This document shows, one piece after another, positions 21,037 to 61,264 of a stretch of 64,000 nt of DNA. Every line of letters starts with the position of its first letter. Position 1 is the stretch's first letter. The DNA comes from Clostridia bacterium. GTDB lineage: Bacteria; Bacillota; Clostridia; Christensenellales; UBA1242. The stretch is from assembly GCA_017444785.1 (NCBI GenBank), contig JAFSVX010000010.1, forward strand, positions 4,648-68,647, written 5' to 3'. The position numbers were made by a program, and so were the translations under genes. The notes below the pieces were generated by a model. It did not search any database. It saw nothing but the letters and a program-made list of their open reading frames with translations, and was not told where the DNA came from.

Positions 21037-24000
21037 TTAACTATTCTTCACATATTTCTTATATCCAGCTTTGTCACTTTCTGATTGCAAAGTGAAACCA
21101 GTAATGCCATCAGGACAAATTGCATCTTCATTAACATAAATAACACTTGCCTTGCCTGTAAGGTGTCCAGAAGAATCTGGGACAGAAGCTATCTCATGAC
21201 CGATGAAAGTTACCGTAAGGTTAGAGCACTGATTAAATATATTAGCAAAATTGACTGAAATTCTATTTTTATTTTCTGGTAATATCACAGTAATTTCTTC
21301 TATATTAGGATCATTATAGAACATTCCACTGCCTAATTGAAGTACATTAGAACCATTAATGACTTCACCATTGATAACAACTTTGGTCAATAAACTATTC
21401 ATATGTGCATTCCATGAAACAAGGCTATCATAATTTTCTGATGCACCTGAAATTATAAATGTTGTCATGTTATACACATAAGTAAATGATTCTTGATTTA
21501 TTATTGCAATACTACCCGAAATTTCCACACTTACCAGCTTATCACATTGAAAGAAGGCACGAGTAGGAATTTCTACTCCATCTTTATTAATATTTAAGTT
21601 GATTACTGAACTTGATGTTGGTAAATACTCTTGTGACAAAATTGGTCCAGTAATATCTTTTAAAGCACTGAAGCTATTAAGTAAAGTATTTTGAATTACA
21701 CAATCGCCAGGTATTACGATTCCTTTTAATAAGGTAACATCTGATACTGATATACTTGTTATCTCTGTACATCCTTCAAAACTAAATGGATTTATAATAT
21801 CTGTACAATCATTATCAAAAGCATATACTGTTGCACTTGGATCCACAATACCATATGCAATTTTATAAGAACTATCACTACTTTTAAAATATTTTATGTT
21901 GTTTGATTCAATTTCACTCCAACTGTGGAATACATGTGAAAAATCATCACTTATGACAACCGCATATTTTGCAATATAGCCATTTTCAGAACTGCCCTTT
22001 TCCATTGTTATTGCTGACAAATTCACGATTTCAAGAATCATTTGTCCTTTAAATGCCTCAGATCCAATACTTGTCACTCCATTTGGTATTGCTATTGTCT
22101 TAAGACCAGTCCAATTTGGATCTTGCTGTTTTGCATAGTCTGTCAATTTAAACGCACCTGCACCAATGCTTGTCACACTGGATGGGATTGTGATACTTGT
22201 AAGCCTTGTGCAATTATAGAATGCAGAACTTCCAATACTTGTCACACTATCCGGGATTGTCACACTGGTAAGCCCACTGCAATCGTAGAATGCATGCTGA
22301 TTAATCTCTTTACATCTTGAATCCAATGTTATGTTTGCTATACCGCTATCTGCCAAACCAACAGCTATGTAATCCGTTTCACTCTCTTTGTAATATATCA
22401 CATTATTTATTGTTGTTAATCTGCTTGGAATATCTGCGCTTGTATTTATCACTTTTGCGCGATATCCTGCATATCCATTATCCGAACTTCCTGCCGTGAT
22501 TGTTAAACTTGATAAATTATATACTTCCACCAATCTGTAACAAGCATCAAATGCCCTCTCTCCAATGCTTGTCACACTGGCTGGAATTGTGATACTTGTA
22601 AGTCCTGTGCACTCATAGAATGCATCACTTCCAATGCGTGTAAGAGTGCTTGGCAATGTTACTGATCCTGTTATTCCTTGTGGCACTTGTATAATTGATG
22701 TCTTCGCTTTGTTATATAATATTCCATCTTGTGATGCATATACTGTGTTATTCTCATCAACTGTAAATTGGGTAAGTCCACTGCACTCATCAAATACTCT
22801 ATCACCAATTGTCTGCACTCCTGCACCAATCGTCACTGTTTCAAGAGACGAACATCTCATGATTGCCCTTGCTCCAATGCTTGTTATGTTGTCAGACAAT
22901 GTCACACTTGTAAGACCACTGTTGAAATAAAATGCCCAGTCTGGAATCTCTGTAATTCCATTTGGAAATGCAAGATTTGTTACCGCTGTGTTATTTATGT
23001 AAAGAGTCCAATCTGCCAAAATCCAATAATTACCAAAACTAATGTTTGTTAAGTAATCATTTAATGAGCCAGAATAATAAAGCGAAATTGCAGGGCCTGT
23101 ACCATCATCTTTTGTCCTGAATGCATTGTTTCCAATACTCTCAATTCCAGCCCCAAAATTAATTCTTGTTAATGTGCAATTATGGAATGCATCTTTACCT
23201 ATTGTTTCAACACTGTTTGGAATTGTTATGCTTGTCAATCCTGTGCAACTGTTGAATGCAGATTCACCAATGGTCACAAGGCTTGTTGGCAAAGAGATGT
23301 TGCTTAAACTTGTGCAACCATAAAATGCAACATAGCCAATGCTTGTTATACTGTTCGACCAAGTTACAGATTCAAGTTCAGAACATTGATAGAATAAATA
23401 AGATCCAATATTTGTTACTCCACTGCCAATTCTTACAGTTTCCAAATCAAAACATCTGTAAAATACAGTATTGCCAAGTGATGTCACACTGTCTGGAATA
23501 ACCACGTCAGTAAGTGATTCACAACGAGCAAATGCTGCCCCATCAATTGTCACAAGCCTATTTGGCAATATCAAATTTTCAAGGCCTGTACATCCTTCAA
23601 ATGCACTTGAATGAATTGTTGTCAAAGTGTCTGGCAATGTCAAAGTTGTAAGATTTGAACAGTTATAAAACGCCTTTTCACCGATTTCTGTCACACCTGA
23701 GCCCAATGTTACACTATAAAGACCAGTGCCGAAAAACGCACGCGATCCAATTGTAACATTGCCTGACGTGGTTACTTGTGCCAAACCACTAAAACCTTCA
23801 AATGCAGAACTACTGATATTTATATCACCGATAAGTTCAAGATTAACATCATAAATTTGAACACCACCAGTAACAAATGAACTTCTGTTTAAAGTCCCAT
23901 TACCAATTACAGAAACATTATTTACAAAGCAGGTGAGAGTGTTTGTATAAGACCAGGAACCATTATACGTAACAAGTGACATAATGAGTTTGTTAGGGTT

Positions 24001-25075
24001 ATATACCATTAATGCCGCTGTATTATAAATTTCAGTTACACTATCTGGCAAAACCAAGTCATTTTCAATCTTTGTATCATAAAATCCAACAGTTCTTAAA
24101 CTACTTGGTAAAGTAAGAGAATCACAATATAACGAATCACACTCCACTTGGTGACATGTATATAGTTCCCCATCCACAAATTGTCTTGGAACAACGATGT
24201 TCGTCTTAGCATTCGTTAAATAAACTAATTCACCTCCACATATAGTGTTATCTATAAGCTCTGGAGTTGCAGTTTTTGTGTAAAGATTATAAATTGCAAA
24301 ATTTTGATTTGATGCAACTGCACTTTGTGCAACTGGGGCAAGAGCCTCGCCATCTTCAATGCCTGTTAAAAGTATTTCCTCTTTAAAGTATCCACAACAT
24401 TCAGTATAAGGGAGAGGGGCATCTGAAAGATTAAATGTTGTGCTGTTTCCAAGACTTACCGATCTTGCAAGTACTCCATCTACATAAAAGTCTATGTAAT
24501 TTCCATAAAGCTGGGTATAGTTGTTCACAATGTTACATCCATCAACAACAAGTGTTCCACCATCTTCAACATAAACTGCTGTGGCTTCCTCACTGGCATT
24601 TCCTGTGATTGATCCACCAAGAAGATGGCAGGTTCCACCTGCCTCAACATAAATGGCACCTCCCCATTTTGCTTGGTTATAGGCAATAACTCCACCTGTC
24701 ATTGTGAATGTCCCACCATTGGCAACATAAATTGCTCCACCATACTCGGCAGAGTGTGACCTTATTGCACCTTGTGACATTGTAAAGCTACTGCCACTGC
24801 CAACATAGATTGATCCGGCCTTTGCTGTCAGTGGCGCCTGCGATGCACCACTATCTTCATTCTCTGAAGCATAATAAACACCAGGGATATCATATCTCTC
24901 TGGTGTTGTTTCTTCAACTTCCACTGGTGTGGAAGGTTTATTATTTCCTCTATTTACAAAGATTAACCCTATCGTAAGGGCAACGGCAAAGACCGCAAGT
25001 ATGATACTTGTTAAAAGTCTATACCCCCCCCCCCATGACGGTTTTGTTCTTATTTGACTTATTTGTCATTGCCAT
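21037..25075 (-). CDS. BspA-like leucine-rich-repeat surface protein with GGAIY beta-helix head; N-terminal signal-anchor exon out of frame at a poly-G tract
   Basis: ORF 21037-24924 (1295 aa): GGAIYV repeats, then many about 23-aa LRR_5-type repeats (IPxSVTSIGxxAFxxCxxLTS). RBS GGAGAGG plus ATG 25073-25075 encode MAMTNKSNKNKTVM. The main frame encodes YRLLTSIILAVFAVALTIGLIFV right after the tract. The two frames differ by 1 nt. Confidence 0.75.
25024..25034 (-). repeat. Homopolymeric G11 tract (C11 on plus strand) inside the 5' coding region
   Basis: Counted directly: C at 25024-25034. G10 would be in frame. Confidence 0.95.
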
Positions 25076-25167
25076 AATTTTATCCTCTCCTTCGTGTATT
25101 ATTTGGCTTTATTTTGCCTGTTTTTATCCGTTTTTATACACTTTTATTTTTTTATTGAACAATTATC

Positions 25168-25196
25168 ATTTTATACATTTATAAAAATCTTGTCAA
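25168..25196 (-). promoter_or_regulatory. Promoter of the 1295-aa LRR protein gene
   Basis: Reverse strand TTTGACAAG with TTGACA (25191-25196), 17 nt, TAAAAT (25168-25173). Confidence 0.6.
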
Positions 25197-28450: not shown

Positions 28451-28855
28451 ACAAAGGAAAGTGAGATATACGGCAACAACAACACTCCGCATATCTATAA
28501 GTATTATAACATGAATACTTAAATATTGCAATACCCTTTTTAAAATTTCTTTAATTTTTTTACAAATATTTCAGCCCGCTCGCTCACTCGCTGACCTACC
28601 CACCGCATCTTCAGTTATCTTTTTGTTTTATCCTTTAAAAAACCATTTATTATACGCAAAAATATCTGACTAACATTTTTATAATACTACCCAATTCAAA
28701 TAACATTGTTTAAAGACGAACTTATAGTGATAATTATTAAACAAAATCCGTATATGGTTAAATAAAAATGCAGAAGAAGGCATAAAACATATAAAATTTT
28801 ATTTATTCATATAACGTTGTTTAAAGGCGAAAATTGACGATTAGACAAGGCTCAT

Positions 28856-28904
28856 AAAAAAATCCAGGCACGACTTTATTTTCATAAATGAGTGTTTGGA
28901 TTTT
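28856..28904. repeat. Conserved-core hairpin module, copy A
   Basis: A-run, ATCCAGGCAC, core GACTTTATTTTCATAAATGA, GTGTTTGGAT, T-run; two G.U pairs on the plus strand. Confidence 0.8.
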
Positions 28905-29016
28905 GAATATGTTTATTCAAATAACGTTGTTTAAAGGCGAAAATTGTGCTGTTGACTTTTATATTTATTCATATAACGTTGTTTCAGGGTGCAAGTTTGC
29001 GTATATAACAAGGCAA

Positions 29017-29070
29017 CAAAAAATCGCGACGCTCGATTTTATTTTTCATAAATGAGTGTGTCGCGATTTC
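29017..29070. repeat. Conserved-core hairpin module, copy B
   Basis: ATCGCGACGC, core TCGATTTTATTTTTCATAAATGA, GTGTCGCGAT. Confidence 0.8.
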
Positions 29071-29120
29071 GTAGTTAACGCAGTTATTTAATTCACGATT
29101 TACTCAATTCAAATAACGTT

Positions 29121-29248
29121 GTTTAAAGGCGAAAATTGTGCCAATAACGAGGCACAAAAAAATTCCAACGCATGATTTTATTTTCATAAATGAGTGTGTT
29201 GGAATTTTTTTAGTAACATAGTTAGTGGTGCAATTTTCGCCTTTAAAC
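29121..29248. repeat. Complete nested palindrome unit abutting and overlapping the rplQ stop codon (contains hairpin copy C, 29156-29211)
   Basis: Outer arms GTTTAAAGGCGAAAATTGTGCC (29121-29142) and GGTGCAATTTTCGCCTTTAAAC (29227-29248): 22/22 pair on the plus strand with two G.U. Inner ATTCCAACGC/GTGTTGGAAT flanks the conserved core. Confidence 0.85.
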
Positions 29249-56903: not shown

Positions 56904-59223
56904 TTATGAATTCTTTATATATTTATTATACCCTGCTCTGTCACTTGTCGTTTGAGTGAATGAATCTGTGATATATGTTCCAACGCTTGTGATTGTGTCT
57001 TTCACATAAACTGTTGTGGCATTTGCGAGCAAATAGGAATCTGATGAATTTAGACCTGCTATCGTTGATGAATCTATTATTACTTCTGTAAGGCTACTGC
57101 AACCCAAAATTGCGCTATCTCCTATGTTGATCAAACCACTTCCTATTGTTATTTTTGTAAGACTACTACAACCGTTAAATATCCAACCAGCAATACTTGT
57201 TACACTATCCGGAATTGTAATTTCAATAAGTGAACTGCAACCTTCAAATGCAACAGTTCCAATACTTGTTAAAGTATTTGATAATATGACTTCTGTAAGA
57301 CCACTGCAACCGTTGAAAGCAGAAACTCCAATGCTAAGTACACCACTTGGAATATTTATGCTTGTAAGTCCAGTACAATTTTGAAATGCATTATTACGAA
57401 TAAACCTGGTATTTCCATTTATTCCACACGATGTTATAGAATTATTTTTTGCATAAATAAGCAATATATATGCATTTATATTGTTTCCAAGATATTTTGC
57501 ATTATCATATTCATTACAAATCAATGATGTGCAACCATTAAATACATAATCTCCAATACTTATAAGGCTGTTTGGAATCGTAACATTTGTAAGTGAACTG
57601 CAATCCCTAAATACTGAATCTCCTATACTTGTCACACCTTCTGGTATAATAACACTCGTCAGGTCTGAACAACTCCAAAATGCACACTCTCCAATGCTTG
57701 TCACACTGCTTCCAATTGTCACACTGCTTACTTTTGGGCTGTATGATGAGTTTGTGACATAAAACAAATTTGCCGGTATGCTTTCAACATTATTACCAAA
57801 TACAACTCCAATTCCATCCCCGTTTGCGCCTGCCCTATAGAATAAATTTTGTGGTACTGAGGCTATGTTAATTGCATTATAATATATGGTTTCTAGACCA
57901 TAACAACCACGGAATGCACCTGTGTCAATGCTTGTCACACTGTCTGGGATTGTTATACTTGTCAGTCCACTACAACTGCTGAATCCCCAAGATTTAATCC
58001 TTGTCACACCATCTGGAATTCTCAATGCCCCAGTAAGCCCGCTACAAGAAGAAAATACGCCATTTTCAATTCTTGTCAAACCACTTCCAAATTTCAGACC
58101 TGTAAATCCTGTGCAACCACCAAATGCAGAATCTTCAATAACTATCACACTGTTTGGAATTGTCAATGTCCCTGTAAATCCTGTGCAATGTAGAAATGCA
58201 CTCCATCCAATTTTTTTAATACAACCGGGAATTATCAATGTCCCAGTAATCTCACTGCAGTTTTGAAAGGCACCACCTTCAATGCTTGTCACATCTTGAT
58301 TTTCATGTTGCCTTGGAATAACAACTTCACCAGTTGGTGTTCCTTGTTTACTTACAAAATGCACATTATTACTTATATAAAAATATAATTTATCAAGTGT
58401 TGCAGTTTTTGTATAAAGTCTTACTGTTTCAAAATTATTTACTGTGGCACTTTGAACTGCCGTTGGAGTATAAATTGTGTCACCGTCTTCCAGATACTGT
58501 GTGCATTCTGCATCTTTGAAATATCCAGGACAATTGTTATAATCAAGTGGTAAAACATCTGTGTCGTAAACAAACTTACCATCTGTTAAATCCAATGCTG
58601 AAACCGCAGCAACTTTTCCATCAACATAATATACAACATAACTGTCATAAAGTTGTGAACTGTTGCTGTTTATTGTTGTCGTTGTTGTTTGTCCTTCAAT
58701 AACTGTTCCACCTGCATTATATATCGCAGCACCAGTTTCCGCTGCATTTCCGACAATCGCCCCGCCATTAAGATTAACTGTTCCACCTTCTTCAACATAG
58801 ATTGCACCACCACAAATTGCTTGGTTAAACATTATTGTTCCGCCATTCATGGTAAAAGTACCACCACTTGCAACATATACTGCCCCACCATATGTCGCTG
58901 ATGAACCTTTATATGTTCCACCATTCATCACATATGAACTTCCTGCACCAACATAAATTGCTCCGCCCTTTTCAGACATTGGGGCAAGTGCTGTACCATT
59001 TTCTTCAACTTCCTGCGCTGATGCATAATAAACACCAGGGATAGTTCTATCCTTGGTGTCCTGCTGGTTCTCAACCACTGTTGGTGATGTGGTTGCCTTG
59101 TTGTTATTAACAATTTTTACGGAAAAAGTAAAGATAAGCGCAGCAACAACTATCGCTATACTTATTAGTATCTTATTAAGCTGCCCCCCCCCCGATTTTT
59201 GCTGTTTTTACCTTGTTTTTCAT
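56904..59223 (-). CDS. BspA-like LRR surface protein (paralog 2); N-terminal signal-anchor exon out of frame at a poly-G tract
   Basis: ORF 56904-59078 (724 aa) has the same head (GGAIYV repeats) and tail (AGYNKYIKNS) as the 1295-aa paralog. RBS GGAGAAGG plus ATG 59221-59223 encode MKNKVKTAKI, then G10. The main frame continues QLNKILISIAIVVAALIFTFSV. Confidence 0.75.
59184..59193 (-). repeat. Homopolymeric G10 tract (C10 on plus strand) in the 5' coding region
   Basis: Counted directly: C at 59184-59193. G9 would be in frame. Confidence 0.95.
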
Positions 59224-59319
59224 ACCTTCTCCCTGCCTTTTGTGTTCCCACAATATTTTTCTGCCAACGGCTTTTCTGGGTTTTTCACCCCAACTTATTG
59301 ACATCTTTTGGATACCTAT

Positions 59320-59348
59320 ATTCTATATTTTTATTCTGCCCTTGTCAA
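59320..59348 (-). promoter_or_regulatory. Promoter of the 724-aa LRR protein gene
   Basis: Reverse strand TTTGACAAG with TTGACA (59343-59348), 17 nt, TAGAAT (59320-59325); same -35 context as the paralog promoter. Confidence 0.6.
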
Positions 59349-59442
59349 ACAATTTTTATCAATTTTGACAAAATTTTTATGAAATTTTTCGCCTCTCTAC
59401 CGAACCGGCGAAGAAAACTCGCCGCATCTTTGGCAAAATTTA

Positions 59443-59516
59443 TGTATATAACAAGGCATAAAAAAATTCCAACGCTCGATTTTATTTTCATAAATGAGTG
59501 TATCGCGATTTTGTAG
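59443..59516. repeat. Conserved-core module, copy D (arms no longer complementary)
   Basis: Close to 28999-29074 by eye (roughly 85-90 percent). However the 5' arm ATTCCAACGC is of copy-C type and the 3' arm GTGTATCGCGAT is of copy-B type. Confidence 0.75.
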
Positions 59517-59570
59517 TATATACATATAACGTGAATTAAGGTGAAAATTTTGATGCAGAAGAAGGCACTA

Positions 59571-59620
59571 AAAAATCCCAGGCAAGCGCATATTTACATA
59601 CGTAACTGTCTGGGATTTTT
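59571..59620. repeat. Hairpin module, copy E (variant core)
   Basis: ATCCCAGGCA/TGTCTGGGAT arms (one G.U on plus) around AGCGCATATTTACATACGTAAC; preceded by ATGCAGAAGAAGGCA, also seen at about 28768. Confidence 0.7.
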
Positions 59621-59648
59621 ATAGTAACAAATTTCTTTTTCACGTCAA

Positions 59649-59790
59649 TTCATACAAATAACGTTGTTTAAGGTTTAGAAAATGTGCAATAAGAAAGAAA
59701 CAAAAAAGTTCCACGCCCGATTTTACTTTCGTAAATGAGTGTGTGGAACTTTTGCAGTTTCTGCACTTAGTGTGCGTTTTGTAAGCCTTA
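59649..59790. repeat. Complete nested palindrome unit abutting the rplA stop codon (copy F)
   Basis: Box TTCATACAAATAACGTTGTTTAAGG; outer arms 59670-59701 / 59757-59789; inner AGTTCCACGC / GTGTGGAACT around CCGATTTTACTTTCGTAAATGA. Confidence 0.8.
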
Positions 59791-60468
59791 AACTTTGACT
59801 TTAATTCCTGGGCCCATTGTAGAAGCAACAACTATACTCTTTAAATATGTTCCCTTTGCAGCTTGTGGTTTTGCTTTAACAATTGCATCAAGAAGCACAT
59901 CAAAGTTCTCTTGAAGTTTCGCAGCACCAAAGCTCTTTTTACCGATAACGCAGTGAATGATACCAAATTTGTCAAGACGATACTCAACTTTACCAGCTTT
60001 GATATCCTTTATTGCTTTTGCAACGTCAGGTGTAACTGTTCCACTTTTTGGGTTTGGCATAAGACCACGAGGTCCAAGAACTCTTGCAGCTCTACCAACA
60101 ATACCCATCATGTCAGGTGTTGTAACGCAGGCGTCAAAGTCAAGCCAACCTTCTTTAACGATTTTATCAACCATTTCTTCAGCACCAACATAGTCAGCAC
60201 CTTCAGCTTTGGCGATATCAGCCTTATCACCTTTTGCGATAACAAGGACTTTCTTTGATTTACCAGTTCCGTTTGGAAGAACTATTGAACCTCTTACTTG
60301 TTGGTCAGCGTTCTTAGGGTCAACGCCAAGCTTAATATGAACTTCAATAGACTCATCAAATTTTGCAGTTGCAGTTTCAACAGCAAGGGCAAGACCTTCG
60401 TTCACATCATACTGCTTTTGAGCTTCGATTTTTGAAGCAGAAGCGTTATAATTTTTTCCGTGTTTCAT
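59788..60468 (-). CDS. rplA: 50S ribosomal protein L1
   Basis: 226 aa; [15 protein letters not shown]... conserved L1 sequence. Confidence 0.97.
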
Positions 60469-61148: not shown

Positions 61149-61264
61149 GGCGTCAGAATGGTGCAATAAGAAAGAAACAAGAAAGCTGAACGCACGACTT
61201 TATTTTTATAAACGAGTGTGTGAAACTTTCGCAGTTTCTGCACTTAGTGTGCCGTTATCACGCC
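61149..61264. repeat. Nested palindrome unit abutting the nusG stop codon (copy G, inner stem decayed)
   Basis: Outer arms GGCGTCAGAATGGTGCAATAAGAAAGAAAC / GTTTCTGCACTTAGTGTGCCGTTATCACGCC; core GACTTTATTTTTATAAACGAGTG; ends 1 nt before TAA 61265-61267. Confidence 0.75.

Follow-up and report, generated by a model that had tools for sequence, protein, structure and literature searches.

Poly-G tracts between leader and signal anchor in two BspA-type surface-protein genes of a Clostridia bacterium: candidate slipped-strand contingency loci

In the 64-kb stretch of DNA that was analysed (the window; 37% GC, ~57 genes), which comes from an uncultured Clostridia bacterium of the gut, two genes encoding proteins with BspA-type leucine-rich repeats (LRRs), here called loci A and B, are each interrupted by a long run of G located between the start codon with its charged n-region and the hydrophobic helix of the signal anchor, and at both loci the run as assembled is one G above the ON frame (+1). 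These loci are most readily understood, with a probability that we place at about 0.7, as slipped-strand simple-sequence contingency loci which toggle the synthesis of surface proteins. The grounds for this are the geometry of the tracts, their non-random occurrence, their recurrence in a paralog, the conservation of their position, and the architecture of the encoded proteins.

Architecture of loci A and B

Locus A is read from the minus strand and its elements follow each other closely (Table 1). The codons of its leader run from ATG GCA ATG ACA AAT to ACC GTC ATG and are translated as MAMTNKSNKNKTVM, with the third base of the last ATG (25036-25034) being the first G of the tract. At the assembled length of 11, the start frame proceeds as GGG GGG GGG GTA TAG, while the frame lying past the tract (TAT AGA CTT ...) encodes the helix YRLLTSIILAVFAVALTIGLIFV and continues into a 1295-codon open reading frame (ORF) at 21037-24924. 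Locus A is thus OFF at 11 G and would be ON at 7, 10 or 13, which would give 2 to 4 Gly. The first-pass annotation of this DNA had described these elements, and on re-reading the ATG, the tract, and the TAG were all found at the coordinates that it had given. Its claim that one G fewer fuses the n-region, the helix, and the LRR protein is likewise borne out, as G10 results in a continuous, uninterrupted 1345-aa translation, and so is its statement that the frame of the long ORF has no start codon before GTG 24924, downstream of the helix: between the tract and this GTG no ATG, GTG or TTG occurs in that frame, and no Shine-Dalgarno sequence was read in front of the GTG. The same annotation had held that tract length decides whether the protein receives its export signal. 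The dependence on length stands, but a mere loss of export does not, since with no usable start upstream of the helix and no ribosome-binding site at the downstream GTG the OFF state should leave protein A absent altogether and not mislocalized.

Table 1. Coordinates of the features of loci A and B in the window, and of the promoter-proximal tracts on contigs of more distant relatives
Feature	Coordinates	Strand	Basis or remark
Promoter-like site A	25168..25196	-	TTGACA, 17 nt, TAAAAT; 11/12 matches
Ribosome-binding site A, GGAGAGG	25084..25090	-	8 nt before ATG; read from sequence
Start codon (25075-25073) and charged n-region A, MAMTNKSNKNKTVM	25035..25075	-	net charge +3 (+3/0)
Poly-G tract A, 11 G on sense strand (C11 on plus strand)	25024..25034	-	sequence and run count
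Premature stop TAG, start frame of A at G11	25019..25021	-	18-aa OFF product, MAMTNKSNKNKTVMGGGV
Predicted signal-anchor helix A, YRLLTSIILAVFAVALTIGLIFV	24955..25023	-	sole hydrophobic segment of protein A
Body of protein A	21037..24954	-	N-terminal beta-helix-like domain with GGAIYV repeats (PF13229, weak PF02415), then BspA-type LRRs (PF13306)
Promoter-like site B	59320..59348	-	TTGACA, 17 nt, TAGAAT; 11/12 matches
Start codon (59223-59221) and n-region B, MKNKVKTAKI	59194..59223	-	sequence and translation
Poly-G tract B, 10 G on sense strand (C10 on plus strand)	59184..59193	-	run count and sequence
Predicted signal-anchor helix B, ILISIAIVVAALIFTFSV	59118..59171	-	translation and hydropathy
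Body of protein B (772 aa when ON)	56904..59117	-	N-terminal domain and BspA-type LRRs as in protein A, to which it is 33% identical
Promoter-proximal tracts	L018 2701-2729; L019 2523-2534; L029 2682-2694		sense-strand G; sequence

A second poly-G locus, which is absent from the first-pass annotation, repeats the design of the first on the same strand at 56904-59348. Its ATG is also preceded by a ribosome-binding site, and the locus is OFF at 10 G and would be ON at 6, 9 or 12. At G10 the tract is followed by GCA GCT TAA, such that translation gives GGGAA before the TAA at 59178-59176 ends the frame; at G9 the frame continues with QLNKILISIAIVVAALIFTFSV... into the 772-aa protein.

Alignment of the two proteins extends across ~740 residues, and they have in common a lysine-rich n-region and a single hydrophobic segment at residues 18-40, for which the mean Kyte-Doolittle hydropathy is 2.5-2.7, all other segments remaining at or below 1.6. 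In protein A the best 19-mer of this segment, LLTSIILAVFAVALTIGLI, reaches a mean of 2.68, consistent with the hydrophobic signal-anchor helix that had been called there from the letters alone. The LRR assignment made at the same time is upheld by matches to LRR_5 (PF13306) with E = 5.3e-131 in eight stretches of protein A and E = 4.4e-97 in five stretches of protein B. Repeats of the GGAIYV type are present in the N-terminal domain of both proteins, while the Beta_helix match, as well as a weak match to Chlam_PMP, was obtained with A only. Neither an LPXTG motif nor another anchor was found in A or B besides the N-terminal hydrophobic segment with its positive n-region. Both proteins end in a C-terminal motif, (K/R)AGY(K/N)KY(V/I)KNS (A, 21037-21070; B, 56904-56937), which may be a sorting or interaction signal; the C-termini of the two homologs from the closest genome found, described below, are unlike it.

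Within the window the two tracts are the only runs of G or C longer than 5, against an expectation from the base composition of ~0.002 runs of at least 11 and ~0.008 runs of at least 10. As uninterrupted G/C homopolymers of at least about 8 they belong with the repeats regarded as hypermutable. Both are located 30-41 nt past the start codon of the only two members of the family among the ~57 genes, so that in the window the tracts are confined to one surface-protein family, and at each of them one G less joins the start to the long ORF, with the other lengths running into a stop within 5 codons. Downstream of them the frames are open for 1295 (A) and 724 (B) codons in a 37% GC genome. A coding preference does not account for GGG-GGG-GGG, since GGG is the rarest glycine codon in the window (8% of 1303 Gly codons). 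TRF reported no notable simple-sequence repeat in the window besides the poly-G tracts, and Rfam and tRNA scans of the window gave no match.

The neighbors of loci A and B are housekeeping genes, namely ribosomal protein operons, rpoA, groEL, lgt, and spoIIE, with locus B directly downstream of rplA. The SpoIIE gene and these neighbors indicate that the host is a spore-forming Firmicute and that both loci reside in the core chromosome. Among the ribosomal-protein genes there are also intergenic repeats of ~65-125 nt that are 66-90% identical to each other (28688-29225, 59448-59533, 59689-59774, and 61166-61251), several of which follow rplQ and others of which are found around rplK and rplA. 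Some of the copies are present in contigs of related species (L161 and L162, see below), none has a match in Rfam, and they could be terminator or REP-like elements.

Proteins A and B are both missing from a database of 5.8 billion proteins, which suggests that the genes have been annotated as pseudogenes; proteins of the window that are on record include MBQ7466560, MBQ7466564, and MBQ7466602. A further record, MBQ7466987.1 (P0001), is 72% identical to A and, going by the accession series to which it belongs, appears to represent a third paralog from this metagenome-assembled genome (MAG). This protein has been called from a GTG that is equivalent to 24924, a hint that its N-terminus may be disrupted as well.

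Relatives of the two genes and the question of decay

Members of the family were sought by scanning a single genome of each species with a degenerate pattern, and were found mainly in uncultured gut Clostridia, with weaker matches in several other phyla and in Methanobrevibacter. The scan of genome contigs revealed no ortholog above 46% identity, and that of metagenome contigs returned distant human-gut homologs only, none of which has a G run of at least 8. The closest genome found, MAG-R002, has its RpoA in the same 90% cluster as the host, ribosomal genes with ~87% nucleotide identity, and an L1 protein that is 96% identical. One of its contigs (L005) encodes an intact 600-aa homolog with GGGGGGTGGTGG in frame at the position of the tract, the N-terminus being ...SVH GG WW LKRSLISFGVVIALLVF... 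from the codons CAT GGG GGG TGG TGG (G6TGGTGG), and a metagenome contig (L003) has GGGGGGAGGG at this position (G6AG3). In an alignment of the four 5' regions (A, B, L003, and L005) the G columns form the conserved core, with G11 in A and G10 in B standing opposite the interrupted runs of L005 and L003, and the latter two look like tracts that have been locked by substitution. The first-pass annotation had proposed a comparison of tract lengths in related genomes or MAGs as a check, and this comparison, through paralog B, the interrupted tracts, and the promoter-proximal runs described below, points in the same direction as its original suggestion.

A second contig of MAG-R002 (L004) carries the positional ortholog of B, a gene for a 1016-aa protein located after rplA and 41% identical, which has an ordinary signal and no tract; tracts therefore seem to be both gained and lost. 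In the window (59223-60468) as in L004 (1499-5964) the gene occupies the slot after rplA that is usual for rplJ-rplL. Judging from the sequences, this slot holds a fast-diverging surface-protein gene, given the 41% identity of the MAG-R002 occupant vs 96% for L1. On L003, the homolog (533-1108, P0012) meets a stop at 191 aa, has ATA where ATG would be expected, and retains as its sole in-frame canonical start a TTG that lacks a ribosome-binding site; it is probably a decayed copy. Two other homologs, P0009 and P0080, were considered as OFF alleles on account of N-termini that seemed truncated, and were rejected when their DNA was found to contain an ordinary GTG start and no tract.

The region upstream of the tract is also shared within the family. 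A promoter module, ...GATAAAAAT(C/T)(A/G)TTTGACA(A/G)G..., is common to locus A, locus B, and L003, while L005 has only its TTTGACAG core. In addition, the 5' UTRs of the family contain a conserved box, TGTCAATAAGT, 20-40 nt downstream of the -10 hexamer (window ~59285-59300, L003 ~520-532, and L005 ~2803-2813), with a weaker version, TGTTCAATAAAA, at locus A (~25140-25152); the box may act as an operator or form a leader element. In two contigs from different assemblies (L161 and L162), assigned to related species via the RpoA cluster, the synteny of rpoA, rplQ, and the patatin, metallo-beta-lactamase, and shikimate kinase genes is kept, and both contigs end at the 3' end of the shikimate kinase gene (equivalent to ~25230 in the window), just before the site of locus A, as would be the case if the promoter module were present in several copies or the region were variable there.

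In three more distant gut Clostridia MAGs a tract of a different placement was encountered, with G10 (L018), G12 (L019), and G13 (L029) located directly 3' of a TTGACA -35 hexamer, with homologous surface-protein genes following 150-300 nt further downstream. The whole spacer before a -10-like hexamer is taken up by the run in L018 and L029, L019 being ambiguous in this respect: G10 in L018 yields TTGACA-17-TATCAT, with 11/12 matches, and G13 in L029 yields a 20-nt spacer, which is too long. These are the only G/C runs of at least 9 in 151 kb of clade loci, and 613 kb of distant homolog loci contain a single such run, in a 62% GC genome. All five tracts (A, B, L018, L019, and L029) have G on the sense strand. 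The geometry of the hexamers suggests that the promoter-proximal tracts could be a transcriptional version of the same switch.

It has to be considered, against a contingency locus, that A and B could be plain pseudogenes, in which a frameshift arose at a mutation-prone run and the genes are decaying with no selected switching. Both genes are OFF and neither product is in the protein database, observations with which recent pseudogenes are equally compatible, and the L003 relative is cut to 191 aa and devoid of an ATG start. Moreover, the copy of gene A on a contig from another assembly (L001) differs from that of the window by 3 SNPs only (23529, 22750, and 22722), and all three are non-synonymous (A->T, N->K, and I->L), a pattern that fits diversifying selection or relaxed constraint. 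However, neither gene has a lesion other than the tract, no stop interrupts the 1295- and 724-codon frames in this AT-rich genome, and promoters as well as ribosome-binding sites come close to the consensus. Substitutions should also erode a run that is not under selection, as has happened in L003 and L005, whereas two paralogs that are only 33% identical both keep an uninterrupted run of at least 10 G made up of the rarest Gly codon. On this balance, we regard pseudogenes as an unlikely explanation.

Tract length in other assemblies

Exact-protein look-ups with the flanking shikimate kinase and L1 genes recovered four short contigs from two ENA assemblies, while the 444-aa neighbor, P0001, and the 724-aa OFF-form product of B gave no match in these look-ups, and no closer strains were present in the collections searched. 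L001 (ERZ27256806), the contig with the three SNPs, spans tract A with G11, and L002 (ERZ28653717), which is identical to the window, also has G11 and ends one base past the run. For locus B, L077 stops ~35 nt short of the run, and L078 reads G8-T-G, a total length of 10, with the end of the contig 6 nt past the run; the T, falling within the last 15 bases of the contig, is probably an end error. No polymorphism of tract length was therefore seen at A, with G11 in 3/3 assemblies, or at B, with a total length of 10 in both of the assemblies covering it, although the assemblies may share a source sample, or come from related ones, and may thus not be independent.

These data bear on the possibility that the homopolymers have been miscounted in assembly, the true lengths being G10 and G9, such that the genes would be intact and constitutive, with tracts that are nonetheless mutable. 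In favor of a miscount, Illumina sequencing is error-prone in long G runs, both loci are off by exactly +1, as a systematic bias could produce, and contigs break at the tracts, 3/4 of the short-read contigs nearing a tract ending within ~35 nt of it. Such breaks would be expected if the reads disagreed on length, and they can also result from the promoter module that the paralogs have in common, or from the low quality of Illumina bases in G runs. On the other hand, the three assemblies that cover A, for which two or more assemblers were used, all have G11 there, and both of those that cover B agree on its total of 10. In short-read assemblies, consensus miscounts at 10-11 nt are uncommon. The occurrence of G11 in two assemblies besides that of the window, one of them with SNPs elsewhere, disfavors a one-off assembly error in particular, and altogether a miscount is judged to be quite improbable, somewhat more so than pseudogenes. 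The dark-cycle artefact of Illumina chemistry, which also generates poly-G, was considered separately and rejected, as the runs are internal, are flanked by coherent coding sequence, and have in-frame remnants in an independent MAG.

A proposed scheme of switching

The candidate slipped-strand switch of the first-pass annotation, OFF as assembled, thus finds support in the geometry of the tract, in the paralog, in the relatives, and in the concordant assemblies; the switching, its rate, the surface location of the products, the biological benefit, and the selective agent are what we infer from them. In the proposed scheme, each gene would be transcribed from its own sigma-70-type promoter with a 5' UTR of ~90 nt, and translated from an ATG with a strong ribosome-binding site into a short n-region rich in lysine and asparagine; where this n-region meets the helix, the poly-G tract would supply Gly-Gly-Gly. 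A G would be gained or lost when the strands slip and mispair in the course of replication. At lengths of 3n+1 (A) or 3n (B) the ribosome would read through the tract into the membrane-anchor helix, fusing it to the leader via Gly3-4, and the protein made and exported would be a surface protein with type II anchoring, in which a beta-helix domain is combined with an LRR domain of the BspA type. At the other lengths a stop 2-5 codons past the tract would allow only a 15-18-aa peptide to be made. The placement of the tract would be favorable in that extra glycines are harmless at this site and the OFF state is the cheapest possible. The subset of the family that a given cell lineage expresses would then be set stochastically and be heritable yet reversible, and the likely gain would lie in varied adhesion and in evading phage or host antibody (IgA).

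Recoding, either by slippage of RNA polymerase or by a +1 ribosomal frameshift on GGG-G, would result in constitutive low expression instead of an OFF state and is the least probable of the explanations considered, very unlikely in our estimate. In its favor, both loci require the same correction (an mRNA shorter by one G, or a +1 shift), and runs of at least 9 identical bases are known slippage sites of bacterial RNA polymerase. Against it, the well-documented cases of bacterial transcriptional slippage are on A/T runs, with G:C hybrids slipping less, and no stimulatory element (an internal Shine-Dalgarno sequence, or a stop codon occupying the A site beside the run) was visible at A. The promoter-proximal tracts in relatives cannot work in this way, and they point to a change of length at the DNA level as the mechanism in common.

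If slipped-strand contingency loci are extended from A and B to the relatives, a broader proposal is arrived at, in which a clade of uncultured spore-forming gut Clostridia (of ruminants and rabbits) would possess a family-wide poly-G phasome with two interchangeable placements of the tract, one transcriptional and adjacent to the -35 hexamer and the other translational and within the signal anchor, with tracts being gained, lost, and locked. This proposal is put forward tentatively, with odds that we see as a little short of even.

Relation to known systems and significance

ON/OFF switching of surface proteins through simple sequence repeats (SSRs) is classical in Neisseria, Haemophilus, Campylobacter, Helicobacter, and the mycoplasmas, the opa genes of Neisseria, for example, having CTCTT repeats in the region coding for the signal peptide. 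Phase variation of gut commensals has mostly been studied via invertible promoters, such as those of Bacteroides and Clostridioides difficile. In line with that, the switches given for Clostridia in a recent review are inversion-based only, and are those of C. difficile (PMC11868660). Our literature search found no SSR-based contingency system for commensal Clostridia, the phase variation that it did turn up there being inversion-based. The mechanism proposed for loci A and B is a textbook one, and what would be new is its occurrence in spore-forming gut Clostridia, an advance in breadth more than in concept.

Closest in protein family is Candidatus Mycoplasma girerdii, in which eight BspA-like genes contain dinucleotide repeats of variable length, with a majority state that is often OFF, as determined at read level (PMC5476646). 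As with A and B, the genes constitute a multigene family of LRR surface proteins of the BspA/TpLRR type in which an intragenic repeat sets the frame, and the organism, like the host here, was found in metagenome data, is host-associated, and is affiliated with the Firmicutes (PMC5476646). It differs in being a wall-less mollicute with (CA)n repeats whose variants were counted in reads (PMC5476646), while here a G homopolymer is found in a spore-former and is known from assemblies; also, in A and B the repeat occupies precisely the point where the n-region and the helix of the signal anchor meet, unlike in Ca. M. girerdii.

With regard to placement, the nearest parallels are the outer-membrane protein genes of Helicobacter pylori, sabA and its relatives, which have CT repeats in the region coding for the signal peptide (sabA, PMC2715451), together with Neisseria opa as introduced above. 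As in A and B, the repeat in these genes lies in the 5' code for the export signal, the OFF state yields a short peptide, the ON variants are distinguished by a few residues at a place where the signal tolerates change, and the families are adhesin-like. The repeats of sabA and opa are, however, di- and pentanucleotides in genes for cleaved outer-membrane proteins of Gram-negative pathogens, whereas in A and B a homopolymer encodes Gly3-4 before an anchor that is apparently uncleaved.

With regard to the repeat itself, the poly-G/C contingency loci of Campylobacter jejuni and Neisseria (PMC6321876, PMC5953494) are similar to A and B in that G/C homopolymers of at least 8, intragenic or intergenic and in a low-GC genome, govern surface determinants by slipped-strand mispairing, and homopolymeric tracts have been reported to be in excess near the 5' ends of prokaryotic genes and proposed as a general device (PMC2831843). 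The phasomes of C. jejuni and Neisseria have been established from many genomes and by experiment, and mostly comprise glycosyltransferase, capsule, LOS, and restriction-modification genes; A and B, unlike these, have tracts in one protein family only and come from a single 64-kb window. For the promoter-proximal tracts of L018, L019, and L029, comparable cases are the poly-G tracts upstream of the tpr genes of Treponema pallidum (PMC7864442) and the poly-C tracts of the fim promoters of Bordetella pertussis (PMC1891110), where a G/C homopolymer beside or between promoter elements tunes the transcription of a surface family through its length. This promoter mode has no representative in the window, and in the relatives it is suggested by the geometry of the hexamers.

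If the contingency-locus reading of A and B is true, the annotation of such genes as pseudogenes in MAGs under-counts functional adhesins, and the ON and OFF states of the family would be readable from tract lengths by strain-level metagenomics. SSR-driven bet-hedging would then also reach a large and little-known part of the animal gut flora.
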